Positions 12,833 to 43,852 are shown, counted from the stretch's first letter. The stretch: 64,000 nucleotides of DNA from Minicystis rosea (GCA_001931535.1 CP016211.1:4503573-4567572); one strand, 5' to 3'. Translations and numbers: made by a program. Notes: generated by a model from the sequence alone, not told the origin.

Positions 12833-12894
12833 CAAGCCCGCAGCTTGGTTTTCGCGCGGCATCCCGCGGTCGCGACTATGTTGCGGCCGTAGGC

Positions 12895-14201: not shown

Positions 14202-14271
14202 GGCAGGCGGCTCGCCCAACCGGCGAGGCCGCGCAACGCGCTTAGCAGCGTCATTGTCCACGGAGGCGGCT

Positions 14272-14765: not shown

Positions 14766-15057
14766 TGGTTCGAGGCCACGGCGGGGCTGGCGCTCGCGCG
14801 CGCTTCGCCACTTCGTTGGAGCTCAAACGATCGCGGTGATATCGTTTGAGCACCAACGATCGCGATGCCGCCGCGATCGAAGCTGACATCCGCGGTGACC
14901 AGGCCGAGCGACCATCGCGCCGTCGACGGTGGGGCTCGGTGCTTTCATTTGCCTGCTTCCTTCGCTCTTGACGGCGCGAGCGCGGGACTTGCAGAGCGGG
15001 CGCAGAGCAGCAGCTCTCGTCATGGATTCACGGATGATGATGATGATTCGAGGCTCG

Positions 15058-15888: not shown

Positions 15889-16092
15889 GCGGCGTCGCCT
15901 CGCGCGGGCCGCCGCGCATCGCGCGCCGCGCTCAGAGCGTGACCGAGAAAGACAACGCGAGGCCCGCGCGGCGCGACGTTCAAAAGGGCGAGGGTGGTTC
16001 GAGGTATGGGGGTACCTAAGTCAAACACCCCCACCATCAGTCAGTAAGTCAATGAAAGTACATACGAAACCGGCGTTTCAGGACCCGCTCAC

Positions 16093-18397: not shown

Positions 18398-19249
18398 TCA
18401 GGCGTCCGGTTCTCCTTCACCACCCAGGCGTTGGATGGTGTTGCTAACGACATCGCCCTCGCTGTACACGCGGCCGTTAATGCGCACGACGCGAGCGCCG
18501 GAGCCGACCTTCTCGCGCAGGTCGCCGAAACCATCCTGCGGCACGTGGGGGATGAACTCGGCCCCGCAAGCAAGCAGCACGTCGGCAGATGGCCATCCAC
18601 CGCCTTCGCGCTCTGCTTGGCGCTGGATCAAATCAGGCAGCACGCACACGAACTCGGCGGAGGCGTCTCCCTCGTCGTAGCCCTCCATGTTCTCGTGGAA
18701 CCGCTCGGCCTCCCACGCCGTGCGTGCGATCACGAACCAGTCCTCGTCGCCGTCGCCTGTCTCGCACCAGTAGAGCTTCCACTTCGCCCAGAACACCGGC
18801 ACGGTGCGACCGTCGCCGTCCTCGTCATAGTCCGAAGCGTCCGTCTCGTCATCGTGTGTGTCCGCCTCTTCTCCTTCCTCGTCATCAAGGAAGTGCTCGG
18901 TGGCGCCGGTGGCGCCCTGTTCTGGCAGATAGCTATAGAAGAGCACGTCGCCGAGCTTCTGGTGATTGACGATAAGGCCGCGCGTGAGGTCGCCTGACGC
19001 CGTCTCGATGAAGGCGTTCGCGTAAACCACGACGGGGCCGAGGCTGCCACTCGTGGTCGCGATCTCGTGGAGGCGTGCGCGACACTTGGACACGGCGTCA
19101 TCCACGTCCCGCGCTTCGACGACGATCTGGAAGGTGCCGTCGTCGTCGTCAGCATCGTCTTCGCTGCCGACAAGTTCCTCATCAGGGCTGAACTCGAAGC
19201 AGCAGACGAACAGCTTGGTGAGCTGAGCGCTGTTGGTCTCGTCGGGCAT
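18398..19249 (-). CDS. hypothetical highly acidic protein (candidate immunity/partner protein)
   Basis: ATG at 19249 (M10 of ORF 18398..19276) with a GGAGG RBS. 283 aa, rich in D/E runs ('EDDADDDDG', 'DDEEGEEADTHDDETDASDYDEDGDG'). It is the last gene of the minus-strand vgrG cluster. Confidence 0.45.
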   Translation of the reverse strand: MPDETNSAQLTKLFVCCFEFSPDEELVGSEDDADDDDGTFQIVVEARDVDDAVSKCRARLHEIATTSGSLGPVVVYANAFIETASGDLTRGLIVNHQKLGDVLFYSYLPEQGATGATEHFLDDEEGEEADTHDDETDASDYDEDGDGRTVPVFWAKWKLYWCETGDGDEDWFVIARTAWEAERFHENMEGYDEGDASAEFVCVLPDLIQRQAEREGGGWPSADVLLACGAEFIPHVPQDGFGDLREKVGSGARVVRINGRVYSEGDVVSNTIQRLGGEGEPDA

Positions 19250-19390
19250 CGCAATCCTCCGTCGCCGCGGTAGCACAACACGCCTCTTGAGGTGGCCCTT
19301 TCGTCGAGAAGAGCTGGGCTCGGTCCTGGGGCAGCTCCGGAGTCCGGAGTTCCCAGCCTGTGCCGCGTGCAGCGGCCGAGCTCCCCGACG

Positions 19391-19870
19391 TCAGGGCAGT
19401 TCCACGTTCGCGGCGAGCACCTTTATCGCCTTTGCCGCACGCAGCGCCACCCCCTCGCCCGCGAGCCGAATCGCGCCGCTCTCATCGAGCATCAGCACAG
19501 CCTTTCCGACACGCAACACGATTGCCCGCTCCGCTGCGAGCTCCAGATCCTTCGCATCGAGGCGCAACTTCTCCGGCTTGCCCTCCGCGCTCGGCTGCGT
19601 CTGCAACGCGCCAACGATCACGACGCCGTCGCGCGTCTGCGTTACCAACATCGTCCGCCGGGTCCGCCTGCATTCGTCAGCGAGAGCCGGGGCGACCCCC
19701 TCCGCGAGCTTCGCGCGTACGCGCTCGCCCGCTGCCGTCCGCACGCGGTACGCGCCCCTGGGCCCAGGCTCGATCGTCGCAGCGTGCAAGCCCGGACCGA
19801 GAGCGATGTCCGTCGCAGCGACCCCAGCGCGCGTCTTCCGTCCCACTCTCGCAGATCCCGCTTTCGTCAT
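19391..19870 (-). CDS. hypothetical 159-aa protein with beta-helix-like repeats resembling a VgrG C-terminal region
   Basis: The start codon overlaps the upstream stop (ATGA at 19867-19870). The C-terminal half 'LRLDAKDLELAAERAIVLRVGKAVLMLDESGAIRLAGEGVALRAAKAIKVLAANVEL' alternates hydrophobic/small residues like a spike beta-helix or DUF2345. Confidence 0.45.
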   Translation of the reverse strand: MTKAGSARVGRKTRAGVAATDIALGPGLHAATIEPGPRGAYRVRTAAGERVRAKLAEGVAPALADECRRTRRTMLVTQTRDGVVIVGALQTQPSAEGKPEKLRLDAKDLELAAERAIVLRVGKAVLMLDESGAIRLAGEGVALRAAKAIKVLAANVELP

Positions 19871-22335
19871 CGACGTCTCCTCCGCGCATCATGCCACGAG
19901 CCCGCGCGCCATCGCGCGCTCTGCGTGTTCTCGGTTGCCTCGTGCAGCCTCGTGCCGGCGTCGCTCCCCCACAGGTCGAGATCGACACGGGACCAGAGCC
20001 CGGTCCGCGCCCACAACTCGTCGAGATCGCGCTCCATGTCGCCCTGCGATCCGGCGTCGGTCAACGTCGACATCCGCAAATCGCGCGCGATGGCCACTGG
20101 CGTCCAAGGGGCGCCATGGCGATAGCGTAGCGAAGGATCGAGGTCGCGCTCCGCAAGCGCGGCGCGCCACACGCTGGGCTGTAGACGGGCCTCCGGCTCC
20201 ACGATCGGACCGAACAGCATGAGCAGCGCCTCTCTTGCCGCGTCAGCGAGCTCGGCGTCCGCTAGATGGTGCAGGAGGAACGACCACGTGAGCGGGTTGC
20301 CGAATCGGCCTATCGCGTGGAGTAAATCGGGCGTCATGGGCGTGCTGGCGATGATGTCCTCCAGATGCACCAAATCGTCCGCCGAACCACCCATTACGAA
20401 CAGCTCGGCGGCGCGCGTGCCCAGCGCCGAGACCAGGGGACGCCGCTCGCGTAGGGCACAGAGCGCGGCGTCGTCGCCCCACAACGTCACCGCGCGTGCG
20501 GCTTCCCACGCCACGCCGACGTCGGAATGCGAGAGAAGCGAGCCCACCCGCTCGTCCGCTTCCGGAGGCGGAAGCGGCGCCGCGATCCGCGTGAGCGCTC
20601 GAACCGCCGCGGCAACCCGAGCCGGAGCCTCGTTGTCGAGCAGCGACGATGCCCGCGCTACGTCGAGCGTGCCTCGACGCGACAGCACATCAATGCCGAT
20701 GGCGCTGGCGATCGGGTGATCGCTGTCGAGCAGATCCGCGGCGAAAGCAACCACACCAAGATGAGGCGACGACGCGAGCGCGTTCGTCGCAACGTGCACC
20801 GCATCGCTCGCGTCCACTGGCAAGCGCTCGAACATACGCACGAGCCCGAGGAGTCCGTCAGGACCGTTGACCAGGCCGAGGAGGAAAACTGCGGGCCAGA
20901 GTGCCCACACATGGCCCTCTGCATAGGCTCGCTCGCTCCAGTCGACCACGTCCACGAGCGCGCGCTCGCCCGAAACGAGGATGGCGTCGGCCAGCTTGAG
21001 GATGCGCGCCTCGCGCGTCGCTCGGAGTGCAAACGGACGCGTCACCCGATGCTCGGCGAGCATCGCCATTGTGTCGGCCGCGCTGGCGACGATGCCCTCC
21101 ATGAAGGCCTCGCTGGAGATCGGCGCCGTACGCTGATCGTCGAGATGAACCTCGACGGGGTTCGGCCGCACTGCGCTCGGCTCCTCGTCGCCGAGCGCCG
21201 TGTCTGCGAACTCGCGCGATGGCGCGTCGTGCGGCGGAGCGTGCGCGCACGGTCCCACGAAGGCCACGAGGCGCGGGCGGCCGAGGATCGCATGCTCCGG
21301 CCCCGGCGCGTTCGTCGCCATCGCGGTCATGGCGCACAGCCCCCGCGTACCGTCTCTCGAGACTGCCCAAGCGACGAACGGCGCCGCCCCAGCCGCATGC
21401 TCGCGCGCGGCGTGGTGCCGCTCTGCCGCGAGCCCGTGTGCGATCTGCGCAGCAGCGGAAGCAGCACCGACACGGCCGATCGATCGCTCGACGCACTCGA
21501 TCGTCATCGTCTCGTGCCAGAGCGCCGCGTGCCGCGCGGAGGCGCAGGTCCACTCTGCCATGCGAAGCGAGTCGATCTCGGCCTGGCCGTACACACGTGC
21601 GATCGGGCCGAGCCCGGCCGGCACGCCATCGAGCAGCGCAGCGAGGGCCGTCCCGTCGACGACCAGATCGTCATCGTCGCTGCCCGCGCCTTTCGTCGTC
21701 CCGGCGTAGTGTACAGTGCCGAGCGAGAGCCCGAGCTCGCGGGCGCCCGCGCCCTTCGTCACCACGAGCGCCGCAGCCGCCTCCGAGAGCGGCGGTGGCT
21801 CCCGCGTCCACGATGGCGGGTCGATCTCCAACTCTGCGCGCACGGCGTCGAGCGAGACGAAAGATTCGACCGCGACCAGCACGACCACGCGCACCTCGCC
21901 GGCCTCGAGCAACCGATCAGCCTCGAGCAACGCCGCGAAGAACGACGCGGCCCCCGTGAACACGCGCCGCAGCGGAGCAGGCGTTGCGGTTGCAAGCATG
22001 CTCGCCGCCGCTTGGCGATCGGCCTCAACGAGCCCTGGCCGCGTCGCTCCGAAGTTCATCAGCAGGGCCATGTTACCGGGCGCCACGTGCGGCATCCGCT
22101 CCAACACCTCGCTCGCCGATTGGAGTGCGCGCTCTCCGAGTGCGGCCAGCCGCTCCGCTATGGAGAGCTTCGCGCCGAGCCACGGGCAGTGGAACACCGG
22201 CGCGGGCTCGCCGTCGGTGCCGACGAAGGCCGACGGGGGGCAAAGACCAAGCCCCGCACGCACGAAGCAGGCGTGTTGGAGCGGCGTAAGCCCGATCGGG
22301 GACACCAAGGCCGAGCCGATGATCGCGAGGTTCAC
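19867..22335 (-). CDS. 822-aa protein: N-terminal thiolase/ketosynthase-like fold lacking the catalytic Cys, plus C-terminal HEAT/ARM-like repeats (candidate T6SS cargo)
   Basis: GTG start at 22335 overlaps the vgrG1 stop (GTGA). The N-terminus 'VNLAIIGSALVSPIG...' parallels the KS 'IAIIGMGCRFPG' motif, 'TGAASFFAALLEADRLLEAGEVRVVVLVAVE' aligns to the KS 'TACSSSL...' active-site region without Cys, and 'IGRVGAASAAAQIAHGL' is a KS C-terminal-like Gly motif. The C-terminal 350 aa hold repeated 'xxLLxxxDxxVRxAAxxAL' HEAT-like helices. Confidence 0.5.
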   Translation of the reverse strand: MNLAIIGSALVSPIGLTPLQHACFVRAGLGLCPPSAFVGTDGEPAPVFHCPWLGAKLSIAERLAALGERALQSASEVLERMPHVAPGNMALLMNFGATRPGLVEADRQAAASMLATATPAPLRRVFTGAASFFAALLEADRLLEAGEVRVVVLVAVESFVSLDAVRAELEIDPPSWTREPPPLSEAAAALVVTKGAGARELGLSLGTVHYAGTTKGAGSDDDDLVVDGTALAALLDGVPAGLGPIARVYGQAEIDSLRMAEWTCASARHAALWHETMTIECVERSIGRVGAASAAAQIAHGLAAERHHAAREHAAGAAPFVAWAVSRDGTRGLCAMTAMATNAPGPEHAILGRPRLVAFVGPCAHAPPHDAPSREFADTALGDEEPSAVRPNPVEVHLDDQRTAPISSEAFMEGIVASAADTMAMLAEHRVTRPFALRATREARILKLADAILVSGERALVDVVDWSERAYAEGHVWALWPAVFLLGLVNGPDGLLGLVRMFERLPVDASDAVHVATNALASSPHLGVVAFAADLLDSDHPIASAIGIDVLSRRGTLDVARASSLLDNEAPARVAAAVRALTRIAAPLPPPEADERVGSLLSHSDVGVAWEAARAVTLWGDDAALCALRERRPLVSALGTRAAELFVMGGSADDLVHLEDIIASTPMTPDLLHAIGRFGNPLTWSFLLHHLADAELADAAREALLMLFGPIVEPEARLQPSVWRAALAERDLDPSLRYRHGAPWTPVAIARDLRMSTLTDAGSQGDMERDLDELWARTGLWSRVDLDLWGSDAGTRLHEATENTQSARWRAGSWHDARRRRR

Positions 22336-24917
22336 GGCGTGTCCACCTCTCCGCTCTGTTGCGCTTTGCCATTGATGGTGACGCTGGTCGCCTTGAGCAG
22401 AACGCCGCCCGATGACACCGAGAAGCTCGAACTGCCGCAGTGGAACGTCACGATCCCGCCCGTGAGCGACATCGCGCCACCGACCTTGATGCTGAGCGCG
22501 CTCCCAGACTTGATGCGATGGTCCTTGCCCGCCGTGCTCGTGAATGAGCCGCTGACGGTGCGGTTCAGCGCCGTCTTTACCGCCTTCACGATGTTGCCGC
22601 CCAACGCCGAGATCCGGATGCTGGCAGCCTTGTCGACGGAAGCGCCCAGCGTGCTCGTGGAAACGCTCGTCGCTTGGATGTTGTGATCGCCCCCGACAGC
22701 GAAGACGGAGCGACCCAGCGTGGTCCACCGGACCATGGCCGGCGTCATCACGGCATGGGGACCGCCGATCAACTCGACCATCGCGCCATCAACCTTGGCG
22801 TTGCGATGCCCCGGCCCGGGGCCAGCCGGACCGTTGGCCCCGGCATCCGGGCCAGCGGCGCCGCCGCCTGGCGCGGTGCCGCCTTCGCCGTCGTGGTCAG
22901 GCCGCGGTTCCCACGGAGCGTAGCCAGCACCATACACCGCGGCCATGACCGCATCGGCCCCGGGGATGTGCCCGAGGACTGCTTGAATGGCCGCGTCCTT
23001 GGCGCCCTCCTCGCCGCCGTGGATCGCCCCGGCCGCGACCCCAGCAGCGGTGCCCGCGACATGAGGTACCAACGCGCCGACGGCTGCGACGGTCTTCCCC
23101 CACCTGCCCATGGCCTCGCCGAGCTTGGCACCAGCAGCGGACGCTGCATGAATCGCGGCGGCTTCGGCGAGCGCCACGACACCATCGACGGGGTTGCCGA
23201 CCCTCTCCAAGAGCGCGCCGCCCACAACAACCGATTCGCTCCCTGCCAGGATGCCCATGTCGCCCTTGACGCGAATCGTCTGCGAGCCCCCTACGGCGAG
23301 CGACTGCGAGCCCGCGTCCGTCACGTACTGCAACTTGACGGAGACCTTCTCGCTCGCGCCGATCGAGAACATCTGCGCGCCGCCTACGGCGCAGACTTCG
23401 TTGCCCGCCGTCTGCGTCATCATGTTGTTGGCGACGACGGTGGTCTTTCCCGTGCCCGCGGACCACGCCATGTGCTGACGGCCTGCGACGTCGTCGAAGC
23501 GCACGGCGTTCTTGCGTGCTCCACCTGGCGAGCTCGACGTGGCGAGGCTCGTCACGGTCTTGTTTGCCGGCAGGCTGTGCGGCGGGCCGTGTTTCGCATT
23601 GTACGCGCGACCGACGACTACGGGACGATCGGGATCGCCATCCTCGAACGCGACGGCGACCTCCCAGCCGACGCGCGGGATCAGCATGGATCCAGGGAGG
23701 TTCGGCTGCGCGACGCGGACCGGGAGGCTGCTCGTGTCGTCCGTGGCGCCCTCGCGATCCCAGAAGAAGCGCACCCGCACGCGACCAGCTGCATCGGTGT
23801 GGATCTCCTGCCCGGGAGGCCCCGTCACGACCGCGGTGTGCAGCCCGGCGATTCGCGGGCGCGGCGTCACGCGAGGCAGGCGATACGGGACGTCGAGCGG
23901 GATCGCCGACACCTCCAGCTCGTAGCGAGGCTCGTCTGCGCGCCATCGGTGGTCGATCGCGACGGCTACGTGCGGTCCATTGGGCCGCGCCGCGCCCCGG
24001 TAGTCGCTGCTAGGCTCCATGCGAAATGACAGCCCGGGGGCGAGGGCGAGCGCCGTACTTGCGAAACGTATCGCGCGCGCGTCGGCGCGGAGGCCCTCCA
24101 AGAGCAGCCGTGCGCGCCTTGCCCCCGCGCCGGGCGTCTTGAAACGACCCGGCGCTTCGTAAACCTCCACAGCCTTCTCCGCGCCGAGCCCGTCCAGCCC
24201 GGTGCCTTCGAGCAGGGCCGTGGGGTGCTCTGGGTCGAAATCGCGCAGCGTGACCGTGCCGGCGCGGCGTCGCCGACGCGCCGAACAATCCGACGCGACC
24301 GCGCGATCGGGCACGAGGTGCGACGCGTCCACAAGCGGGAGCGGAGCGGACAGCGCGGGCGGCGCGCTCACGGAGGAGTCTTCCAGCACGAAGGCGTCGA
24401 AGCCGTCGCGCGGCTCGAAGCGGAAGTAGAGTCCCTCGTCTTCGCACAGCCGGCGCACGAACGTGAGATCGTCCTCCGCGTACTGCACGACATACTCGCG
24501 CGGGGAGTGCTTGGTCAGGAGCGAAGATGCCACGTGGTCGGCGTCGAAGCCGGCAGCGCCGAGCACCTTACGAATCACGTCGGGCACGCTCATGTGCTGG
24601 AACACGCGCGTCCGCCTCCGGAGCGAGAGCACGTGGACGGCCGAGCGCACCATCAGCTCGTACCGACGCGCATCCGTCTCCTGCGCCGTCGCGATGGCGA
24701 TGAAGCGCGTGACGATCCCGTGGAACACGCGCTCTCCGGCCGCAGTTGCGCAGAAGACGGCGCACGCCTTGCCGAGCACTGCGCGGGCGTCCACGGGCTC
24801 TGGAGAGACCATCTCCAACTCGGCAACGAGGGGCTCGCCCAGCGCCTCGTGCATGCGCAAGGCGCGGCACTCCAGGGGAACGCGCGCATCCGCCAGCCGA
24901 AACATCACGTGTGCCAT
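22332..24917 (-). CDS. vgrG: type VI secretion spike protein VgrG (paralog 1, 861 aa)
   Basis: Gp27/gp5-like core with 'RPRIAGLHTAVVTGPPGQEIHTD', 'IPRVGWEVAVAFEDGDPDRPVVVGRAYN' and 'GARKNAVRFDD', then a beta-helix of GxxxVxVGG repeats and a Gly/Ala/Pro-rich C-terminal extension. Confidence 0.85.
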   Translation of the reverse strand: MAHVMFRLADARVPLECRALRMHEALGEPLVAELEMVSPEPVDARAVLGKACAVFCATAAGERVFHGIVTRFIAIATAQETDARRYELMVRSAVHVLSLRRRTRVFQHMSVPDVIRKVLGAAGFDADHVASSLLTKHSPREYVVQYAEDDLTFVRRLCEDEGLYFRFEPRDGFDAFVLEDSSVSAPPALSAPLPLVDASHLVPDRAVASDCSARRRRRAGTVTLRDFDPEHPTALLEGTGLDGLGAEKAVEVYEAPGRFKTPGAGARRARLLLEGLRADARAIRFASTALALAPGLSFRMEPSSDYRGAARPNGPHVAVAIDHRWRADEPRYELEVSAIPLDVPYRLPRVTPRPRIAGLHTAVVTGPPGQEIHTDAAGRVRVRFFWDREGATDDTSSLPVRVAQPNLPGSMLIPRVGWEVAVAFEDGDPDRPVVVGRAYNAKHGPPHSLPANKTVTSLATSSSPGGARKNAVRFDDVAGRQHMAWSAGTGKTTVVANNMMTQTAGNEVCAVGGAQMFSIGASEKVSVKLQYVTDAGSQSLAVGGSQTIRVKGDMGILAGSESVVVGGALLERVGNPVDGVVALAEAAAIHAASAAGAKLGEAMGRWGKTVAAVGALVPHVAGTAAGVAAGAIHGGEEGAKDAAIQAVLGHIPGADAVMAAVYGAGYAPWEPRPDHDGEGGTAPGGGAAGPDAGANGPAGPGPGHRNAKVDGAMVELIGGPHAVMTPAMVRWTTLGRSVFAVGGDHNIQATSVSTSTLGASVDKAASIRISALGGNIVKAVKTALNRTVSGSFTSTAGKDHRIKSGSALSIKVGGAMSLTGGIVTFHCGSSSFSVSSGGVLLKATSVTINGKAQQSGEVDTP

Positions 24918-24925
24918 GGCTCGTC

Positions 24926-27118
24926 CTACCCGTCGGTCTTGTCGGTGCCGGTGACCTTGGTCTTCACGCCGCTCTCGAATGGGCCCTGCACGTCGATCGA
25001 CGTCGGCGTCATCTTGACCGTCATGCCCGCGGCCTCGATGGTGAGGCTGCTCTTGGCCTTGACGATCACCTTGCTCCCCCGGAGCGACGCCGAGCCATCG
25101 ATCGAGAGCGATGCCGCTCCCTTGAAGCCATCCTGTACGAAGCCGGCGGCCGAGACCTTGTAGGAACCGAACGACTCATCGAGCGCGATCGCCTTCAGCC
25201 CGTACTGCGGCGCTCGCACGTTGATCGGTCCACCGCTCGCTCGCACGTGCGCACCGGTGACGCCGACCACGGAGGCCACGGTGCCGATCTCGTGCCAACA
25301 CCCGCCCACGACCACGGCGGCGCCGCCGCTCACGTGACGACTGTGCCCCGCGATGGCCGTCTCGATCTTCGCCGCGCCCACGACACGCGCCAGCGTGCTC
25401 GAGACCTCTGTGGCGTAGTCGCCGCCGACCTCGAATAGCCGCGCCCCGCCGACCGAGACCGACTCGGAGCCGAGGCCGAAGGCCATCGCGCCGCCCACGT
25501 TGACGGCGCGGCTCGCGCCAACCGACGTGCTCTGCGCGCCGTCGACCTTCACCGCGCACACCGCGCCGACGATCTGCGTGCGGTTCGCACCGATCTCGTG
25601 CTTGTCGGTGCCCTTGACGTCTACGGTCTTGTCGCTCTCGGTCCGCTCGTTGTAGTCCGACGACGCGTTGAGGAGCATGTCTTCGTGCCCCGCGGCATCG
25701 TCCATACGCAGGGTGTTGGCGCTGCCGCCTCCGGGCGTCGTGCGCGATCCGAACGCGCTTCGGACCTTCTGTGCGGGTAGCGCCTCCGCGGGCCGTGCCG
25801 CGCCGTTGTCGAGCCGGCCGAGCACGTAGGGCTTGTCGGCGGACGCGCCCGAGAACCCGAGCAGAGCCTCCCACCCGACGCGCGGCAAGAACACCGAGCC
25901 GGACGTTTGCGGCTGGAGCGGCCGGATCCAAGTCGAGCTGGTTTCGTCCTTCTTGCGGCGCCGATCCCAGCGCAGGAGCGCGGTCACCTGGCCGTGCGCG
26001 TTGGTGTGGATCTCCGTGCCGGCCGGCCCTGTCACGGTCGCGGTCTGGACTCCGGCGATCGTTGGCGGCTCGGCACGACGCGGGCGGTACGGCGTCTCGG
26101 CCGGGATAGCGATGAATTCGGCATCGAACCGGCGGCCGTCGCGACCAGTTGAGTCGTTGCCCCGCAACTGCCATCGCACGTCGAGCAGGAGCCAGCGCGC
26201 GTTGACATCCTTCCGCGCTGCCCCCGTGAGCTCGAACGTGCGGCCCGGCGCGAATCGTCGGCAATTCGTCTTTCCCGTCAGCAGGACGCGCTCGGCGCGC
26301 GCCTCTTCGAGACGCAGATTGGCGACCACTTCGCCCGCGGCAGGATCGCGGTAGCCACCGGGCATCTCATTGCACGTCAGCGCTCCGACCCCTGCTCTCG
26401 CCTCTGCCCGAAGATCGGCGCGGGGATGCTCGAAATCGTAGTCGCAGAGGCGCACGGCGTCGCGCACGACCGCGCGCCGGAGGCGCACGGCGAATACGCA
26501 GTCCTGCTCGACGAACCCGGCGTCCGCCGCGAAGGGAAGCAGCGCGTCCCCAGCTATCGGCGCGAAGGCGGCAGGGCTGTCCGCGAAGACCACGACATCC
26601 GACCCGCTCTCGTGGTCGACGAACCACGCGATCCCTTCGGCGGCGAGGAGCCGGGAGAAGAAGGCAAGATCGCTCTCGAACGCCTGCACGCACTGCGCAT
26701 GTTTCGGTAGCCGGCGCGACACGCGCACGTCGACGTCCAGGCCGTGCTCCGTCAGCACGGCCCGCGCGATCTCGGCTGCGTCCTGCTGAAGAAAGACCTG
26801 ATGGTCGATCGCGTCCGCGAGCGGAGCGACGCGAGGAGCGATCGTCAGTCGCAGCTCTCCGTAGCGCTGTTCCGCGTCCTCAACGACGCCATGCACGGTC
26901 CGCTCGCCGCCGTCGCCCAACGCCACGGCGAACGTCGCCCGTTGGCCCACCAAACCGTCGAGGTCCACGGCGGCCTTCTCCCCGGAGCCATCGACTGCGC
27001 ACGCCGTGACCACGATCGTGAACGGCTGGCCGAAACCCTCCACGCCGCGCGCGCTCTCCACGAGCAGGCGCTCCGCCGCACCTTCCACGACAAGGCGTCC
27101 GAGTCGTTCGCGTGCCAT
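24926..27118 (-). CDS. vgrG: type VI secretion spike protein VgrG (paralog 2, 730 aa)
   Basis: 'PPTIAGVQTATVTGPAGTEIHTNAHGQV', 'LPRVGWEALLGF...KPYVLGRLDN' and beta-helix repeats. The start ATG directly abuts the vgrG3 stop (TAGATG). Confidence 0.85.
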   Translation of the reverse strand: MARERLGRLVVEGAAERLLVESARGVEGFGQPFTIVVTACAVDGSGEKAAVDLDGLVGQRATFAVALGDGGERTVHGVVEDAEQRYGELRLTIAPRVAPLADAIDHQVFLQQDAAEIARAVLTEHGLDVDVRVSRRLPKHAQCVQAFESDLAFFSRLLAAEGIAWFVDHESGSDVVVFADSPAAFAPIAGDALLPFAADAGFVEQDCVFAVRLRRAVVRDAVRLCDYDFEHPRADLRAEARAGVGALTCNEMPGGYRDPAAGEVVANLRLEEARAERVLLTGKTNCRRFAPGRTFELTGAARKDVNARWLLLDVRWQLRGNDSTGRDGRRFDAEFIAIPAETPYRPRRAEPPTIAGVQTATVTGPAGTEIHTNAHGQVTALLRWDRRRKKDETSSTWIRPLQPQTSGSVFLPRVGWEALLGFSGASADKPYVLGRLDNGAARPAEALPAQKVRSAFGSRTTPGGGSANTLRMDDAAGHEDMLLNASSDYNERTESDKTVDVKGTDKHEIGANRTQIVGAVCAVKVDGAQSTSVGASRAVNVGGAMAFGLGSESVSVGGARLFEVGGDYATEVSSTLARVVGAAKIETAIAGHSRHVSGGAAVVVGGCWHEIGTVASVVGVTGAHVRASGGPINVRAPQYGLKAIALDESFGSYKVSAAGFVQDGFKGAASLSIDGSASLRGSKVIVKAKSSLTIEAAGMTVKMTPTSIDVQGPFESGVKTKVTGTDKTDG

Positions 27119-31465: not shown

Positions 31466-31469
31466 GGGG

Positions 31470-32117
31470 CTAGGTCGAGTCCTGGTGCCCGCGCAACCGA
31501 CCGCAAGTGGAGCATCGGAAGACGTAGGTTGATACGGTGTCCGCTTCGACCCACTCGGCAAGATCGGCCGCTTCATCGGCGCGGAAGTCGAGAACCTCTC
31601 CCACCAGAGTGACAACCTCGACCCTGCGCTCGGCCGCCGCTCGCGCCCAATCATCGATATCCCAGCTACCTACGAAGATCGCGGGACGATGGCAGCAGAA
31701 CTGCCATTGCTCACCCTGCCACGTGCTGTAGTTTGGAGTTCGCAGGAGTTCTTCGAGGTGCTCTGGCGCGATCCGGACGCTGTACCACTCCTCGTCGTCC
31801 TCGGTGCGGGGCACCACCTCGTATCCCAGCGACGGCCACGGCGGGGAGTCCGTGCCGTGCGTGATACCCTTCGCAGCATGCTCCGCATCCACGATACCAA
31901 ACTCGGTATCTTTCATCCACGATGCGCGCCCCCCACGCAGACACGTGTAGCAGGCCACAAGCCTGTCCTTGTGTACGATCTCGAAGATGGGAACGCCACG
32001 GACGCCGCACATGGCGCAGTTGCCCGTCAACTTGAAGCCTTCCGCATCGGCGACACGCGCCTCAAACAGCGGGAATGGCATCCCGAGTTCCGCAAACGTT
32101 GACGTGTCAGAGCCCAT
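31470..32117 (-). CDS. cbrC: CbrC-family (UPF0167) protein
   Basis: 215 aa with an AAGGAG RBS. N-terminus 'FPLFEARVADAEGFKLTGNCAMCGVRG' and C-terminus 'YVFRCSTCGRL' parallel the CbrC/UPF0167 pattern (LPxFxYHPDPxxTG...CxxC ... FxCxxCG). Confidence 0.55.
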   Translation of the reverse strand: MGSDTSTFAELGMPFPLFEARVADAEGFKLTGNCAMCGVRGVPIFEIVHKDRLVACYTCLRGGRASWMKDTEFGIVDAEHAAKGITHGTDSPPWPSLGYEVVPRTEDDEEWYSVRIAPEHLEELLRTPNYSTWQGEQWQFCCHRPAIFVGSWDIDDWARAAAERRVEVVTLVGEVLDFRADEAADLAEWVEADTVSTYVFRCSTCGRLRGHQDST

Positions 32118-32132
32118 GGCAGTCTCCTTTGG

Positions 32133-32357
32133 TCAGAGCGGGATCGGTTTGTAGTTGAGGAGTTCGTCCACGATCTCCTCATCGCTGGCGTTCGTAAATC
32201 GACTGTCCCAGAAGATGACGTTGATGGGCATGGGGTGGACGACGGCTTCGTCCAGGCGATCGACTAGCGCGTCAATCTCCTCCTCCGTCCCCTCTGCGTT
32301 GCGGATCTTGTGCACCATGATCACGAGTTCGTCTCGCGAAAGCTGGCGTTGGGACAT
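32133..32357 (-). CDS. colicin/pyocin DNase-type immunity protein (Im family)
   Basis: 74 aa. 'LSRDELVIMVHKIRNAEGTEEEIDALVDRLDEAVVHPMPINVIFWD...SDEEIVDELLNYKP' parallels Im9 ('EFLQLVTTICNA...[27 protein letters not shown]'). AAGGAG RBS. Sits 16 nt downstream of the Rhs stop. Confidence 0.7.
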   Translation of the reverse strand: MSQRQLSRDELVIMVHKIRNAEGTEEEIDALVDRLDEAVVHPMPINVIFWDSRFTNASDEEIVDELLNYKPIPL

Positions 32358-32372
32358 CGTGCGCTCCTTGCT

Positions 32373-35300
32373 TCAGAAGTGATAGCCGCGATCGAGAATG
32401 CTCTGATGAAACCGCGGGGTGACCACAGCCAAGTTGCCCATATCGTAAACCCCGCCACCGTGCTGAATCGGCGTCAGGTGATGGATCACGTATCGTTTTT
32501 GCCCCTTGTACTGTTGCTCCCACGTGGTGAATGGTGATTCTCCGCGCCTCATCGTTTTGACCTGTCCCTCGTCGAACCGCGCAGATGCCTTTGGATCAGC
32601 GGCAACGGCCCTCCAAAACGCCTCGCGAAAGTCGTCAAAGGTCCTGAACCAACGTCCCTTGAGAGCTTCTGCGACGGACTTCGGAATGCGGCCAGCGTTA
32701 CGCTCTGTTCCCTTCATCCAGTTCTCAGGATCCGGGTGATTCTCCCCCATGTATGCCTTCCCCGGGCTATTCCGAAGCAGCCCCCAGGGATCGACGTCCG
32801 CCGCGGGACTCCCGTCAAACGCGAACAGGTTTCGCCCACCACGCACGCCCAGCGGATCCGGGCTAATCCACCTTCCCACCTCCGGGTCGAAGTACCGGAA
32901 GCGCGTGTAACAGAGCCCCGTCTCTTCATCGAGGAACTGCCCCATGAGCCGGAACGGCGTCGAGACCGCGCGCTTCGCCTGCGGATCTCTCCACGTCTCG
33001 ATCACCTGGCCCCACGCCGAGTGCATCGCGGCCCAGGCCACGCGGCCGTCCTGATCGACGAGCTCCTTCGGAATCCCGAGGTGGTCGTTGATGTACGTGA
33101 ACACCTCGCCCTGCTCCTGGTGGAGCATCGGCTCGAAAGTGCCGGGCTCGTGAACGAAGAACCGTGCTCCCTTCTCCGGATCGAGCTCGCCCGCGAGCAC
33201 GTTGCCGTCCCACAGGTATTCGACGACGCCGATCGGCGGCAGCGCCTCCGGCCCCTTCTCGTAGGCGAGCACGACCATCTTCTTGATGTCGCGCCGCTCG
33301 GCGGGGACGATCTGCTTCCGGACGCGGCGCCCGAACGCATCATACGTGTAGAGGACACGACGGCCGTCCGAGAGGCGGGTCTCGCGTAGCCGATCGCGGC
33401 AGTCCCAAAGGTACTCCGTCGACACGCCGGTCCGCTTCTTCGTGTGCTTCGTCCGCCGGCCCTGGCCGTCGTTCTCATAGCGCGCGCTCGGCGTCTCCGT
33501 CAGCAGATCGCCCTCGCGCGTGTGGAACGGGTGGATGCGATCGACATCGGCCAGGTCACGCAGCATGTTGAATAGGCCGCCGGTGCCGTCGTAGTCGAAG
33601 ACCTCCCGATGCCTGCCGAGCGCCGCCTCGATGAGTTGACCTAGCGGATCGTGCTGATAGGTCGTCGTGCCGTGTCGCGCGTCGGCGACGGTGCGCACGC
33701 GGCTGGCGTTGTCGTACTGGAGTTGGCGGCGCGAGAGGAGCGTCGCGGCGCCGACCCCCGTGGGCGCTGGCGCCGTGACTTGCTGGTCGACGAGCCGGTC
33801 CATGGCGTCATATGCGCGAAGAATGTCGACGCCTCCCGCGTACACGTGACGCCGCACGTCGCGGCCGAGGACGTCGCGCTGGATGGCGACGCGATGCCCG
33901 TCGTGCTCGACGCCGACGATGTCCCCCTGCGCGTCATAGTGGTAGTGCGTCGTGGCTCCGTTCGGCAGCGTGCGCGCGGTGCGACGTCCCTGCTCGTCGT
34001 AGGCGAACGTGATCGTCCGCTCGTCCTGCGTCTCCTTGATCACGCGGCCGAATGTGTCGCGCTCGAAGCTCGTCACGACCTTGCCGTTGTACTCGGTGAG
34101 CACCGCCTTCTTGACAAGTCCCAAGCGGTCGCGCTCGACCTTGATGGTGCCGTGCGGCGACAGGTCTGCGATCACGTTGCCCAGCGGATCATAAGCCAGG
34201 TTGCGGAACGTCCGGTCCGGGTAGTCGATACGCGAGAGGTTCTCCGCGAGCGAGTACGTGTACCGCAGCGTTCGGCCGTGGAAGCTCGTCTCCTCAATCA
34301 CACGGCCGGCGTCGTCGTAGTGCAGGCGGTACTCCTCGGCGCGCGGATCGGTGATGCTCCGCAGGCGTTCGAGCTCGTCGTACTTGAAGTGCCACTCCTG
34401 CTCCGTCGGATCGATGAGCTTCACGAGCGCATGCTGGCCCGCGTACTCCATGCGCGTCGTGTGGCCCTCCTCGTCGGTGACGGCAACGGCCCGCCCAATC
34501 GCGTCGTACTCGCACCGTGCCGTGGTGCGATCGGGCCGGTGGAGAGCGATCCTGCGCCCGAGCCGATCGTACTCGACACGGGTCACGCGGCCGAGCGCGT
34601 CCGTGCGCGTGAGCGGGCGCCCGAGAACGTCGTAGGTGCACCGCGTGACCGCCCCTCGGCCATCGGTCTCCTGCACGAGATTGTGCTGCTCGTCATACGT
34701 GAACGACGCGACGAGGCCAGCGTTCCCGTGCATCGCGGTCACACGGCCCCGGCCGTCGTACGTGAGCGTGAACCGCTCCCCGGTCGGGTGCGTCACCTCC
34801 TCGAGGGCGCCGCGGCCATCGTACGCGTACGTGGTGGCGTGGCCGCGCGGATCCACGTGCGCGACGAGCCGGTCGTCGTCGTACTCGAATGTCGTGGTGT
34901 TGCCCGCTTGGTCGATGCGCTCGACGAGGTTGGCGCGCGCGTCGTAGCGCAGCTTGATCTTCTCGCCCGCGGCGTTCGCCTCGGAGAGCAGGTGGTGGTC
35001 CTCGTCGTACTCGCGCACGCGGGCCCACTGGCCGTCGAGCGTCTCCTCGCGGACCACCAGCCCGTCCTCGGTCCAGGTGAACTTGAGAGGCTCCTGGTTG
35101 CCGGAGGTGAACGTGACCCGCTTTTCGAGATCGAAGTGCAGATCGGCCTCGTAGATCCCGCGGTCGCCGATGGTGCGCACGCAGCGGCCCGTGGCGTCAT
35201 CGTACGTGTAGCGAAAGCTCACCCCAACCTGCGTCGTGCGCTTCGTGAGGCGGTGCCAGCCGTCGTACTCGTAGCGGAGCACGCCGCCGAGCGCGTCGGT

Positions 35301-36431
35301 TGCGGTCGCAAGCTCGCCCTCCGGATGGTATGTGTAATCGACCCACTGGCAGAGTTCGGACCGCTCTCCAGCGCTCCAGACCTCGACGCGCCGGATTCGT
35401 CCCTTGTCATCGGAGAGCACGCGCAGCTCGCGTCCAGCTGTGTCGACCACGCGCGCGAGCTTCCCGGCCTCGTAGTGAAGCTCTACGCGGTTGCCCCACG
35501 CGTCGCGCACGAGGCGGAGCACCGCGCGTCCACCGGCATCGAGCGGCGCGAACACACGCACAAGCCGGCTCTCGGCGCTCTCGACCTCGAACGCGCCCGC
35601 CGACGTCACGCGGAGCGTGAGCTGGTCGCGCCGGTGGAATGTGGTCTCACCCGGCGCGATCTTCTTGAAGTGGACAGCGCGGCCTTCCTCGATGCGCAGG
35701 CGCCAGACGTCGTCCCCGGGCTCGATCCACTGCGCGAAGCAGTGCGTCCACCCGCCTTTACCGAACGGGCCGCCGCGCTCATTGGAACGCGCCGAGGAGT
35801 AGAAGCGCTGCCATTCGACCAGGATCATGCCTGGGAGCGTGAGTTCCGTTGTGTCGTCAACGACGAAGCCCGTGGCGACGGTCACGGGCTCGCCGGCCGT
35901 GGGCGTCTTGGAGGCGTTTTGGGGAAGGAGCGCAATCGGCTTCCGCTCGTCGTCGCCGCCGCCATCCGCTGTCGACGCGCCCGACGATCCGGCGCCTCCC
36001 CCCTCGACCAGCGCGCCAGTCTGCTGCGCAACACCGCCCTTCGGAGAGGGCTTGTTCATCGCGACTGTGTCGCCCGTCGTCGCTACGCCCTTGCCGTCCA
36101 CCAGCGTGCGCGAGGAGCCGCTCGTCACCTCGACGTTGCCGGCGACGCCCGCAATGCCATGCGACACGATATCTCCCCCGAGCACCTGCGAAGGCGCGTT
36201 GCCCGGCGAATCGGTGGCCATGTAGCTACCCTTGACCACGACCTCCGCCCCGGCAATCGTGGTCGCCGATTCGGTGCCCGATGCCTTCGAGGTGTCTGCG
36301 GTGGTCACGACGGGAGTGGGCACAGGGGCGCCGGGCGGCGTCGGCGGGTAAAGGCTCGTCTGCGGCGCCGCGACGGCCTTGTGTTTCGTCTTCTTGGTCG
36401 CGACCTTTTTGCCGCCCGACGTCGTACCCAT
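32373..36431 (-). CDS. rhs: Rhs/YD-repeat polymorphic toxin: N-terminal PAAR-like region, Rhs core, C-terminal colicin-E9-type HNH DNase domain
   Basis: 1352 aa with dozens of YD repeats ('RYEYDGWHRL', 'YTYDDATGR', 'YDPLGN') and the Rhs core terminus 'PFRLMGQFLDEETGLCYTRFRYFDPEVGRWISPDPLG...DPWGL'. The last 134 aa (about 32373-32777) match the colicin E9 DNase: 'KRYVIHHLTPIQHGGGVYDMGNLAVVTPRFHQSI' against E9 '[32 protein letters not shown]'. N-terminus 'GGDIVSHG...VEVTSGSSRTLVDGKGVATTGD' is PAAR-like (tentative). Confidence 0.85.
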   Translation of the reverse strand: MGTTSGGKKVATKKTKHKAVAAPQTSLYPPTPPGAPVPTPVVTTADTSKASGTESATTIAGAEVVVKGSYMATDSPGNAPSQVLGGDIVSHGIAGVAGNVEVTSGSSRTLVDGKGVATTGDTVAMNKPSPKGGVAQQTGALVEGGGAGSSGASTADGGGDDERKPIALLPQNASKTPTAGEPVTVATGFVVDDTTELTLPGMILVEWQRFYSSARSNERGGPFGKGGWTHCFAQWIEPGDDVWRLRIEEGRAVHFKKIAPGETTFHRRDQLTLRVTSAGAFEVESAESRLVRVFAPLDAGGRAVLRLVRDAWGNRVELHYEAGKLARVVDTAGRELRVLSDDKGRIRRVEVWSAGERSELCQWVDYTYHPEGELATATDALGGVLRYEYDGWHRLTKRTTQVGVSFRYTYDDATGRCVRTIGDRGIYEADLHFDLEKRVTFTSGNQEPLKFTWTEDGLVVREETLDGQWARVREYDEDHHLLSEANAAGEKIKLRYDARANLVERIDQAGNTTTFEYDDDRLVAHVDPRGHATTYAYDGRGALEEVTHPTGERFTLTYDGRGRVTAMHGNAGLVASFTYDEQHNLVQETDGRGAVTRCTYDVLGRPLTRTDALGRVTRVEYDRLGRRIALHRPDRTTARCEYDAIGRAVAVTDEEGHTTRMEYAGQHALVKLIDPTEQEWHFKYDELERLRSITDPRAEEYRLHYDDAGRVIEETSFHGRTLRYTYSLAENLSRIDYPDRTFRNLAYDPLGNVIADLSPHGTIKVERDRLGLVKKAVLTEYNGKVVTSFERDTFGRVIKETQDERTITFAYDEQGRRTARTLPNGATTHYHYDAQGDIVGVEHDGHRVAIQRDVLGRDVRRHVYAGGVDILRAYDAMDRLVDQQVTAPAPTGVGAATLLSRRQLQYDNASRVRTVADARHGTTTYQHDPLGQLIEAALGRHREVFDYDGTGGLFNMLRDLADVDRIHPFHTREGDLLTETPSARYENDGQGRRTKHTKKRTGVSTEYLWDCRDRLRETRLSDGRRVLYTYDAFGRRVRKQIVPAERRDIKKMVVLAYEKGPEALPPIGVVEYLWDGNVLAGELDPEKGARFFVHEPGTFEPMLHQEQGEVFTYINDHLGIPKELVDQDGRVAWAAMHSAWGQVIETWRDPQAKRAVSTPFRLMGQFLDEETGLCYTRFRYFDPEVGRWISPDPLGVRGGRNLFAFDGSPAADVDPWGLLRNSPGKAYMGENHPDPENWMKGTERNAGRIPKSVAEALKGRWFRTFDDFREAFWRAVAADPKASARFDEGQVKTMRRGESPFTTWEQQYKGQKRYVIHHLTPIQHGGGVYDMGNLAVVTPRFHQSILDRGYHF

Positions 36432-36529
36432 GATTCGAATCCTCGCGCGCGGGGCAAATCTCCGCCGTAGACGCGCTTCGCGCGTCGTAAATACCGCTCT
36501 TTCCGCTGCGGCTTGCTATCGCATGAACG

Positions 36530-38116
36530 TCAATCGAATGACCGCGTGTTGGCCGTCACGCCGTCAGCGCCCTTGCCGTTGTCTGTAGTGGTATTGCCGT
36601 TGCCGCCGCCGCCCCCCTTGCCGAAGTTCGCTGGATCGATCTGGAACACACCCCCCGTGGGTGCCTTACCCTTGAAGGCGACACCGAGCGAGTGGCCGCC
36701 TTGACCGCCACCACCCGGACCGCCATTGCCGCCTTTGCCTCCATCACCGCCGCGGCAACTATCGTTGGCAGAACCGCCGGAACCGGGGGTTCCGCCGAAC
36801 CCTTTGGTACCGCCGCTCTGCCCATCACCACCCTTGCCACCATCCCCAGCCAGGCTCGACTTGAGCGTCGTTTGGCCAAGGGAAATAGTCGCGTTCAGGC
36901 TCACCAGCGCGATACTGGAGCCGCCCGGGTATCCTCCACCGCCGAGGGCTCCACCGCAGCCACCCGTCCCGCCGCCGCCACCGCTGGCACCCACACGATC
37001 CTGGGTGACGGCGTTGCAGGTGATCGACTTCGCGCCTTTGGCACCGCCACCGCCACCGCCGCCCTGGCCGGGCTTGCCGTTGGTCCCATCAGCACCCTTG
37101 TTGCCGGCGTAGCCGCTCGCCGAGAGCGCACCCGCGCCCATGGCTCCTACACCCGAATTGCCACTCGCGCCGGGCGCGCCAGTTGTGCCGTCATCGCACG
37201 TTGCCGTCGCAGGAGTGCCTTGTCCTTCGCCAATACCCCCTTTGCCTTTCGTCGGCTGGGAGATGTCTGTAGGAGTGCCGTCAGTGCCGCTCCCTGCCGG
37301 ATTGGGATTGCCGGCGGTGAAGTCTCCGCCGTCACCACCATTGCCCGCGTTCGACCCATCGCCAGTTGAGCACACCTTCGTCTTGCCCTTCGGCCCCGGG
37401 TTGCTCGCGCCTGAATCGCAGATGCCCACGCCCGGGTCTCCCTGCTCCCCATCAAGCGCGATGTCGTCAGCCGGATGCGTCCCGGGATCTCCCGCCTTCG
37501 CCGCCTTCGCCTCCAAGGTGCCATTGAGCATGTCGAGCGCCCCACCATTTACGAGCACCGCGATCGACGACGCCCCCGCCATCACCGCGTCAGCAGCGAT
37601 GATATTGAGGTTCTCGATGCGATTCGCTCCTCCATCGAGCACCAGCGCGGGCACATCAGACGCTCCGTTCAACGTGGCGAACGCCGAAGCCTGCCACGTC
37701 CACCCCTTCTCCGAAGTGCAGTTGCCGAACCCTCCGTAGACCTCCACTCCATCGGAGAAGCTCACCTGCATCGTCTCCGAGTACGTCTCCGCGCACGCGA
37801 AGACGCGCGCCGGCGTCGCCGCAGCGGCTTCTGCGAAGGTCCGGAAAGGCTTCGCCTTCCTTCCGTCGCCCCCCGGCGCCGCGCTCGCGCTCACGAACAC
37901 GCCGCACCCATCGCGTACGAGCGCGGGGTCCTTGGTGGGATCGCCTTCGCAATCCGGGTCCCCTCCGTCACCATCCGTCCCCGCATCCGTTGCGAGCTTC
38001 GGGTCCGTGAGCGGCAAGTAGTAGTCGTCCCACGTCGTTCCGCAGGCGATGGCGAGCGTCGCGAGCGCCGGCCCGAAGATGGCCGCCAGAACCGCACCGT
38101 AGCGTCGATTGCTCAT
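36530..38116 (-). CDS. secreted Gly-rich (collagen/GGxGxD-like repeat) lipoprotein
   Basis: ATG at 38116 (MSNRRYGAVLAAIFGPALATLAIACG lipobox). The C-terminal 300 aa are runs of GxGG/GGxG ('GKGGDGQSGGTKGFGGTPGSGG', 'GGGGGGGAKG'). It sits immediately upstream of rhs. Confidence 0.5.
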   Translation of the reverse strand: MSNRRYGAVLAAIFGPALATLAIACGTTWDDYYLPLTDPKLATDAGTDGDGGDPDCEGDPTKDPALVRDGCGVFVSASAAPGGDGRKAKPFRTFAEAAAATPARVFACAETYSETMQVSFSDGVEVYGGFGNCTSEKGWTWQASAFATLNGASDVPALVLDGGANRIENLNIIAADAVMAGASSIAVLVNGGALDMLNGTLEAKAAKAGDPGTHPADDIALDGEQGDPGVGICDSGASNPGPKGKTKVCSTGDGSNAGNGGDGGDFTAGNPNPAGSGTDGTPTDISQPTKGKGGIGEGQGTPATATCDDGTTGAPGASGNSGVGAMGAGALSASGYAGNKGADGTNGKPGQGGGGGGGAKGAKSITCNAVTQDRVGASGGGGGTGGCGGALGGGGYPGGSSIALVSLNATISLGQTTLKSSLAGDGGKGGDGQSGGTKGFGGTPGSGGSANDSCRGGDGGKGGNGGPGGGGQGGHSLGVAFKGKAPTGGVFQIDPANFGKGGGGGNGNTTTDNGKGADGVTANTRSFD

Positions 38117-39132: not shown

Positions 39133-39138
39133 GGGACC

Positions 39139-43707: not shown

Positions 43708-43852
43708 CGCTGCCTCGCCCGAACTTTGTTCCGCCGGGTTCGGGCCAAAGCGGGGATGGTACTATCGAGCGCGGCGTCATACGGCTCCGCTCCAAGGCCG
43801 CTCCCGCGCGGCCTGTTCACGTTCGGGCTGCCCAAGCCCGGGAAGGTGAAGC

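Follow-up and report, generated by a model that had tools for sequence, protein, structure and literature searches.

We analysed a 64,000-nucleotide (nt) stretch of Minicystis rosea DNA (GCA_001931535.1, CP016211.1:4503573-4567572), referred to below as the window, which carries a type VI secretion system (T6SS) island with three consecutive vgrG genes. One of its proteins, a ketosynthase (KS)-like/HEAT protein, is 100% identical to A7982_03856 of M. rosea, whose genome measures 16.04 Mb, and GC content ranges from 63 to 74% across the window. The minus-strand gene series was drawn from the open reading frame (ORF) listing together with the GC content of third codon positions (GC3) in each reading frame. 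The core of the finding occupies 19391-36431, and the genes are as follows (aa, amino acids).

38116-36530, minus strand: Gly-rich putative lipoprotein, 528-536 aa, with a signal/lipobox-like N-terminus (…LAIAC)
36431-32373, minus strand: Rhs polymorphic toxin, 1352 aa, assigned by Pfam and motif
32357-32133, minus strand: putative Im-type DNase immunity protein, 74 aa, with weak Im-family matches
32117-31470, minus strand: CbrC-like protein (UPF0167, colicin E2 tolerance family), 215 aa, PF03691
31465-30473, minus strand: TvpA/DUF2169, 330 aa from the ATG at 31465, PF09937
30480-29323, minus strand: unk385 (A7982_03860), conserved in position, no assigned function
29326-27119, minus strand: VgrG-A (earlier vgrG3), 735 aa, Pfam and TIGR03361
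27118-24926, minus strand: VgrG-B (earlier vgrG2), 730 aa, Pfam and TIGR03361
24917-22332, minus strand: VgrG-C (earlier vgrG1), 861 aa, Pfam and TIGR03361
22335-19867, minus strand: TvpD-like KS-like/HEAT fusion (A7982_03856), 822 aa, PRK06147 and TIGR02270 matches
19870-19391, minus strand: p159, 159 aa, a small predicted OB-fold protein with a short beta-prism, from an AlphaFold2 (AF2) model and Foldseek
19276-18398, minus strand: acidic ORF, 292 aa, no family match

A preliminary description of this stretch had proposed a run of twelve co-directional genes. All twelve ORFs were present on the minus strand at the positions it gave, and the four junctions it listed proved exact: ATGA at 19867-19870, GTGA at 22332-22335, ATGA at 29323-29326, and a TAG directly followed by ATG at 27119/27118. 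The intergenic gaps of 0-20 bp that it reported have two exceptions, one of 98 nt between the lipoprotein gene and rhs, and one of 114-141 nt between p159 and the acidic ORF. The latter gene had been counted as a member of the island. We found that it gave no match in family-profile scans and that it has no homolog in any related locus, being missing from every one with a readable downstream side, which by comparison of the loci places it outside the conserved module. The lipoprotein also had no Pfam or NCBIfam match. A 35% identical homolog occupies the equivalent position in one related locus (L006) and a 541-aa gene stands there in another (L005), and its linkage upstream of rhs is limited to the closest relatives. 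Its role in the module is doubtful, and it is not counted in the mechanism proposed below.

A scan for promoters and terminators was not informative in this 68% GC DNA: terminator-like hairpins were no commoner than in shuffled sequence (12 compared with 7.7 +/- 2.6), and none fell in an intergenic gap. When about 50 ORFs across the window were scanned, none matched a T6SS core family (TssA-M, Hcp), in agreement with the earlier statement that the window holds no core genes. The basic description of the locus as a T6SS VgrG/effector island with tightly coupled accessory genes was thus supported, while its proposal of alternative spikes is examined below.

Three VgrG paralogs inherited together

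We checked the three VgrGs for gp27- and gp5-like domains and found that all of them match Phage_GPD, Phage_base_V and Gp5_trimer_C. The gp27-like hub domain, Phage_GPD, was covered over the full Pfam model with E of about 2e-59 to 2e-69, and the two families that represent the OB fold and beta-prism were above their cut-offs in each protein. TIGR03361 gave 363-375 bits against a cut-off of 186. DUF2345 was not detected in the three proteins in the Pfam scan. In BLAST comparisons the window paralogs were 32-35% identical to one another over almost their whole length, so that the divergence is not confined to the N-terminus, as had been described; the largest difference lies in the C-terminal prism region of VgrG-C.

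Homolog look-ups revealed seven independent related metagenomic loci that carry the same three VgrG paralogs in the same order. The related loci are arranged as follows.

L001/L005, L003, L004/L009, L006 and L008: DUF2169 (~330 aa), unk (380-474), VgrG (~736), VgrG (~729), VgrG (~860), KS-like (~340), HEAT (~475-512), p157
L010, a distant Polyangiaceae metagenome-assembled genome (MAG): same order up to HEAT, where the locus ends, with much lower identity
L012 and L014: DUF2169-unk convergent with …VgrG-KS-HEAT(-p159-Rhs)
L011: VgrG-A and VgrG-B only, then p159 and Rhs

Orthology among the VgrGs is clean and 1:1:1, with orthologs 37-74% identical overall and any two paralogs 28-35% identical (BLAST). 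In the close loci L001, L003 and L004, ortholog identity was 72-74% for A, 67-71% for B and 66-69% for C. In the distant loci it fell to 44% (L010) and 50% (L011) for A, 40-42% (L010 and L011) for B and 37% (L010) for C. We then compared 24 VgrGs in a neighbour-joining tree rooted on an unrelated neighbouring VgrG. The A, B and C proteins each formed a monophyletic clade, and the loci branched in the same order inside each clade. This matching topology indicates that the triplication is older than the split of the lineages, and that the three genes have travelled together since. A search of the available literature found no description of a contiguous, co-diverging VgrG triplet.

Large myxobacterial genomes contain many paralog expansions, and M. 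rosea itself carries 61 vgrG paralogs (PMC5801462), which raises the idea that only one of the three VgrGs is functional and that the other two are drifting duplicates. We regard such decay as very improbable. All three vgrG ORFs are intact in eight loci, and their GC3 of 0.83-0.88 is typical of expressed genes in the M. rosea genome. Furthermore, the difference between ortholog identity (37-74%) and paralog identity (~33%) implies long-term purifying selection on each copy.

The spacing of the three genes is conserved in eight loci. The TAG stop of VgrG-A abuts the ATG of VgrG-B, or the two codons overlap in an ATGA, and the 3' end of A contains a GGAGG; VgrG-B and VgrG-C are 2-8 nt apart; and VgrG-C overlaps the start of the KS-like gene at (A/G)TGA. 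No adaptor or effector gene lies between the VgrGs. In six of the eight loci VgrG-A and VgrG-B occupy one reading frame and are split only by the TAG (27116-27121 in the window). Read-through at this junction would yield an A-B fusion, and termination-reinitiation is the more likely event.

The regions that follow the OB fold differ between the paralogs. VgrG-A has 288-293 residues after the OB-fold end and VgrG-B has 287-292, with a difference of at most two within any locus, and both are shortest in L010. VgrG-C has 409-425. Its ~130 extra residues in the prism region (~aa 575-708) comprise an Ala/Gly-rich, moderately hydrophobic segment and a Gly/Pro linker. This insertion is conserved across the orthologs, with the motifs GHIPGxDA, APW and PAGPGPGHR, the last of which is invariant. 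The C-terminal tails differ between the three clades and are kept within each clade.

The Rhs effector and its putative assembly genes

The gene at the head of the module core encodes an Rhs protein, as had been called. From N- to C-terminus it comprises a predicted PAAR-like region (DUF4150/PIPY-type), DUF6531, an RHS-repeat shell, the RHS core and a colicin E9/pyocin-type HNH DNase. Pfam identified RHS_repeat (4e-77, 10 stretches), Col-Pyo_DNase (PF21431, 9e-33), DUF6531 (1.5e-14) and the RHS core (3e-12). The N-terminal Tox-PAAR-like match (PF13665, formerly DUF4150; aa 31-128) had an E of 7.2e-6 and 26.5 bits, under the cut-off of 31. The corresponding PIPY motif, canonically P(I/V)P(Y/F), reads PVPTPV in the window, PVPAPY in L012 and PVAPF in L011. 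A cleavage motif (DPLGVRG…DPWGLL) precedes the toxin tip, and the tip matched the DNases of pyocin S8 and colicin E9 in the PDB with an E of 1e-27 and with the HNH residues aligned (HH…N…H).

Wherever it could be viewed, each module has one Rhs ortholog, which lies downstream of p157 in L003, L011 and L012 but upstream in the other three cases (the window, L005 and L006). The toxin tip appears to be swappable. The orthologs in L005 and L006 are 72-77% identical to the window protein up to about residue 1261, after which L005 continues into an Ntox30 tip that is followed by separate downstream genes, and the window and L006 share the Col-Pyo DNase, Im and CbrC set. In addition, GC content over the tip and immunity gene (32133-32779) is 0.57, whereas the Rhs body and the other parts of the module have 0.68-0.71. 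A low-GC tip-immunity pair is the usual mark of a swapped toxin-immunity cassette and fits a recent replacement.

The small ORF next to rhs, previously called an Im immunity gene, is present where it was placed, and its identity as an Im protein is a weaker call, with an E of 1.4e-3 to Colicin_Pyocin (PF01320; 19.1 bits against a cut-off of 21.2) and of 1.1e-3 to Im9 in the PDB. Orthologs are found in L006, one of them with a recorded PF01320 match. The cbrC call was upheld by PF03691 (UPF0167; E 1.4e-16, 61 bits against a cut-off of 25); NF040891 also matched, at 1.8e-10, which is below its cut-off, and L006 has a 63% identical ortholog at the equivalent position. An HNH-intact tip, an Im-like next gene and then a UPF0167/CbrC gene recall colicin E9 and pyocins S2-S8 with their Im proteins, and CbrC of E. 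coli. Unlike colicins, which rely on receptor-mediated uptake, the M. rosea DNase would be delivered by an Rhs cage on a T6SS spike, judging from its domain order. Between the Ntox30 Rhs and DUF2169 of L005 (4246-8960) there are several small genes, among them one for a DUF1266 protein and one for a 135-aa orphan fragment of the RHS core; the arrangement resembles an array of toxin tips and immunity genes that have been displaced. In the split module of L014, tblastn detected neither Rhs nor p159. A 1849-aa ORF occupies the effector position there (11155-16704, minus strand), with peptidase C39-like, TPR, DUF1266 and right-handed beta-helix domains.

The DUF2169 protein was also correctly called (PF09937, E 3.8e-76). 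It is a single-domain protein of 330 aa without a pentapeptide extension, it matches the DUF2169 crystal structure 8vth in the PDB (E 7.8e-19), and its orthologs in L001 and L003-L006 are 329-330 aa long. The next gene, unk385, has 23 homologs, is present in all full modules and always lies between DUF2169 and VgrG-A where the context is readable. It had no Pfam match, and Foldseek against the PDB gave noise only (E >= 1). The AF2 model, with a mean predicted local distance difference test (pLDDT) score of 72, predicts two confident helical domains (residues 10-160 and 310-380, ~90) and a disordered Pro-rich linker (170-285) bearing LPF motifs. Relatives of 578 aa in another contig (P0029-P0031; L007 10001-11737) share the N-terminal helical domain, repeated LPF motifs and the C-terminal helical domain, and sit among housekeeping genes (cysS, transaldolase) without T6SS genes nearby.

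The KS-like/HEAT protein is divided into a thiolase/KS-like part (aa 1-340) and a TIGR02270-type armadillo (ARM)/HEAT part (aa 345-822). The earlier call agrees with matches to NF004798/PRK06147 (aa 2-312, E 1.4e-14, 54 bits against a cut-off of 342) and to TIGR02270 (E 2.7e-12, 46 bits against a cut-off of 207), both of which are under the equivalog cut-offs; orthologs have recorded HEAT_2 matches. The KS-like domain had no Pfam match and no relative in a PDB sequence search, and a scan of genome contigs with the KS-like/HEAT protein as the lone query found no relatives. The two parts are fused in the nearest relatives (P0002 and P0003), and the KS-like protein (~340 aa) and HEAT protein are encoded by two adjacent separate genes in L001, L003, L004, L006, L008 and L009. 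PRK06147-TIGR02270 fusions make up 3.8% of PRK06147 proteins, and PRK06147 was proposed as a T6SS adaptor by Liu et al. in 2020 (PMC7714669). We considered the HEAT protein as the cognate immunity protein and rejected this assignment, since this protein remains constant when the tip is exchanged, and every tip is accompanied by a separate small immunity gene. This constancy indicates that HEAT is an accessory protein here.

In all loci the conserved part of the module ends with the gene for p159, whose family comprises 313 clusters at 50% identity. The AF2 model of p159 predicts a five-strand OB-like core with additional C-terminal strands. The best Foldseek matches were a phage P1 baseplate protein (9vzk_q), the R2 pyocin spike (4s37) and P2 gpV (3qr8), with E from 3e-3 to 2e-2, followed by generic OB folds. 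Weak DUF2345 matches, to the C-terminal part, were seen in 15 of 20 p159 homologs, and Pfam found no DUF6484 in p159, 19 close homologs or 10 distant family members. Whereas the neighbours A7982_03856 and A7982_03860 were matched at 100% in the protein search, p159 was not, and its gene may be absent from the M. rosea annotation as deposited.

These genes correspond to a known class of spike-assembly cluster. In the definition of Sachar et al. (2025), synteny type A comprises VgrG, DUF6484, DUF2169, a thiolase-like protein, a DUF4150 (PIPY) effector and an armadillo-like repeat protein; the same study showed that DUF2169 chaperones the PIPY cone and strictly co-occurs with T6SS VgrG-DUF4150 spikes (PMC11883445). 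In the nomenclature of Monlezun et al. (2026), TvpA is DUF2169, TvpC is a small VgrG mimic with an OB fold and a short prism, and TvpD is PRK06147; P. aeruginosa PA0095-PA0099 is an example of Class II Tvp, and in Serratia a TvpC pre-complex comes before hand-over to VgrG (PMC13373197; bioRxiv 10.64898/2026.02.23.707444). By its gene content, the M. rosea island is a DUF2169 synteny type A/Class II Tvp cluster. The window holds all functional slots of Class II Tvp, with the Rhs N-terminus as putative occupant of the PIPY slot and p159 as that of the TvpC slot. The protein p159 is a candidate TvpC-type mimic of the VgrG tip; as it has neither a DUF6484 match nor profile similarity to the VgrG OB region, it is TvpC-like by position, size and predicted fold only.

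The closest parallel in content is the P. aeruginosa vgrG1b cluster (PA0095-PA0101), and the P. mirabilis pef and V. parahaemolyticus VP1395-VP1415 clusters belong to the same class. By its predicted content, the M. rosea module shares with the vgrG1b cluster DUF2169, PRK06147/thiolase-like, ARM/HEAT and small OB-fold proteins beside VgrG, along with an effector that starts with a DUF4150/PIPY cone and ends in a nuclease. The differences are several. All described examples of this type have one VgrG, whereas the M. rosea module has three co-inherited vgrG genes and L011 has two. The M. rosea effector, a complete Rhs cage that carries a colicin-type HNH DNase, contrasts with Tse7 of P. aeruginosa; unk385 is extra; the sequence of the small OB-fold protein falls outside DUF6484; the order is rearranged, with the effector first and the OB-fold protein last; and TvpD is fused to HEAT. 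New relative to the known clusters are therefore the fixed VgrG triplet, the extra conserved gene unk385 and the non-DUF6484 TvpC-like protein. The Class I system of Agrobacterium tumefaciens, VgrG2-Tap2(DUF2169)-Tde2, similarly places a DUF4150-fused nuclease on a specific VgrG with the aid of a DUF2169 chaperone, but it has no TvpC, TvpD or HEAT protein and a single VgrG. The M. rosea locus extends Class II Tvp/synteny type A to Myxococcota, with a new TvpC-like sequence family and unk385.

The finding of no T6SS core gene in the window, together with a frameshifted integrase that adjoins the module, could be taken to suggest that the genes serve a contractile injection system of another kind, either extracellular (eCIS) or phage-tail-like. 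The scores of the VgrGs on TIGR03361, a T6SS-specific model, and the strict tie between DUF2169 and T6SS spikes argue against this. Moreover, sheath, tube and baseplate genes of any kind were not found nearby, and the upstream flank is syntenic chromosomal DNA in L006. We consider that this explanation has a slighter chance even than decay of the paralogs.

A Class III Tvp cluster was observed in L015, the closest relative, whose p159 is 87% identical. There (3552-9819) the module is followed by a pair of serine recombinases and then by a DUF2169 protein with pentapeptide repeats, DUF3540, a PAAR-like protein and a truncated VgrG. This arrangement indicates that different Tvp classes lie side by side in these genomes.

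Composition of the spike

VgrG spikes are usually treated as homotrimers, and mixed trimers are viewed as opportunistic combinations of scattered paralogs. The preliminary description had suggested that the three M. rosea VgrGs are alternative spikes, each loading a different effector. Our results do not support this idea. No cargo is interleaved with the VgrGs, each triplet has one PAAR-like effector and one chaperone set, and seven other loci have inherited the three genes as a set, with their order kept and their orthology 1:1:1. Co-inheritance, a coupling that favours equal synthesis, and a single cone cargo with one chaperone set together argue against three alternative spikes. Fixed co-inheritance is the pattern expected of subunits of one assembly or pathway, and not of a menu of interchangeable spikes. 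The overall best explanation, to which we assign a probability of roughly 55%, is that a single Rhs effector is served by A, B and C as one set, co-inherited and translationally coupled, most likely in the form of mixed A/B/C trimers. Our best reading of the product is a co-assembling spike that is probably heterotrimeric. A stricter version, in which the spike is an obligate, operon-encoded heterotrimer with one chain each of A, B and C, intrinsically asymmetric through the hydrophobic domain of C, is more tentative, with odds somewhat short of even.

Based on these data, we propose the following scheme for the co-inherited set. The PAAR-like (PIPY/DUF4150-type) cone at the Rhs N-terminus would cap the VgrG trimer, the colicin-E9-type HNH DNase tip is, by homology, the toxin, and the Im-like protein, perhaps with CbrC, would protect the producer. 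If the findings from P. aeruginosa and S. marcescens apply here, the hydrophobic PIPY cone would be chaperoned by DUF2169 (TvpA) together with the thiolase-like TvpD domain, while p159 may form a trimer that takes the place of the VgrG tip within a pre-complex, from which the cone would then be passed to the real spike. We infer, as the new element, that VgrG-A, -B and -C co-assemble as mixed (A/B/C) trimers, to which chain C would contribute its internal hydrophobic insertion (~130 aa), giving an asymmetric spike. Matched prism lengths would hold the three chains in register under one PIPY-Rhs cone, and unk385 and the TvpD-HEAT pair might help the mixed trimer to assemble with the correct composition. 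Genes for the firing machinery (TssA-M, Hcp) would lie elsewhere in the genome; T6SS genes have been reported in Minicystis MAGs or bins (PMC11821767).

Several observations weigh against this scheme. Each paralog has a complete gp27, OB and prism architecture and could form a homotrimer, and the matched A/B lengths could simply come from a common ancestor. L011 has no C, TvpD, HEAT or DUF2169 within 10 kb; it keeps only A and B, which indicates that an obligatory A+B+C stoichiometry is not universal. The gene order is unlike that of P. aeruginosa, and the PRK06147, TIGR02270 and Tox-PAAR-like matches are all under curated cut-offs. The protein p159 is by sequence a member of neither DUF6484 nor DUF3540, its model is moderately confident (pLDDT 68) with weak Foldseek E-values, and hhalign comparisons of the p159 family with the VgrG-C family and the VgrG OB region, using 5- and 118-sequence profiles, gave no signal.

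Some of these points would also suit three independent homotrimeric spikes, in essence the view of the preliminary description, that act as alternative carriers either of the same Rhs cone or of different cargoes encoded elsewhere, among the many M. rosea effector loci. That all three proteins have the full VgrG architecture above family cut-offs, and that L011 retains A and B only, is consistent with this, as are the 61 vgrG paralogs of M. rosea and the clade-specific conserved C-terminal tails, since such tails set effector specificity (PMC8668125). However, interchangeable parts would not be expected to show strict co-inheritance, a fixed order and conserved stop-start coupling, the A and B prism lengths match within each locus, and a single PAAR-like effector and chaperone set, with no interleaved cargo, accompanies each triplet. 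We regard independent homotrimers as less likely, and prefer the co-inherited set serving one effector.

In Vibrio cholerae and Aeromonas dhakensis the vgrG genes are scattered, each beside its own effector or adaptor. The M. rosea vgrGs, in contrast, adjoin one another, are translationally coupled, have diverged together and accompany a single effector. The mixed spikes of V. cholerae (VgrG1/2/3) and A. dhakensis (VgrG1-3) resemble the proposed one in that there are several paralogs per spike and function needs more than one VgrG, and the heterotrimer requirement in A. dhakensis turned out to reflect effector loading (PMC8668125). M. xanthus also needs two non-redundant VgrGs (PMC5801462). 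Three diverged VgrGs kept as a coupled set beside one effector and one chaperone kit would be a natural test case for dedicated heterotrimeric spikes. The triplet could reveal how a three-fold PAAR/PIPY cone seats on a non-symmetric tip, and how Tvp-type chaperones cope with this. Should the VgrGs prove to be simple alternatives, this would be a vgrG-Rhs island of the ordinary kind.

Flanking genes and mobile elements

The co-directional run, which had been described as starting at the lipoprotein gene, continues further upstream, and the module is bordered downstream by an integrase. The flanking features are as follows.

38143-43761, minus strand: PEGA-domain protein, small ORF and two Ser/Thr kinases (40031-42106 and 42103-43761), the upstream continuation of the run
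44912-46666, plus strand: two PP2C phosphatases
17372-16093, minus strand: tyrosine recombinase/phage integrase in two overlapping frames, SAM-like N-terminus at 16506-17372 and catalytic domain at 16093-16815

Synteny with L006 extends over the kinase, small ORF, PEGA, lipoprotein and Rhs genes, in that order. Regulation of the T6SS by the kinases and phosphatases, in the manner of PpkA/PppA, is conceivable. The split integrase, which is either a frameshifted pseudogene or the product of a sequencing error, lies just beyond the acidic ORF at the downstream module edge. We considered whether the adjacent integrase marks a mobile-island origin and rejected this, because the upstream kinase/PEGA flank is syntenic in L006; the downstream flank differs from locus to locus and carries recombinases. 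Only the downstream boundary thus resembles an insertion hot-spot.

The remaining features lie further away. At 48999-53210, an IS3-family rve transposase (50512-51737) is enclosed by two identical Tn5/IS4-like transposase genes (490 aa each); this repeat has a spacing of 2731 nt and showed 100% identity in an alignment of 300 nt. Genes for the alpha subunit and B12-binding beta subunit of D-lysine 5,6-aminomutase (9071-12832, plus strand) and for a Vps62-domain protein (PF06101; 54910-55857, minus strand) are unrelated to the module.

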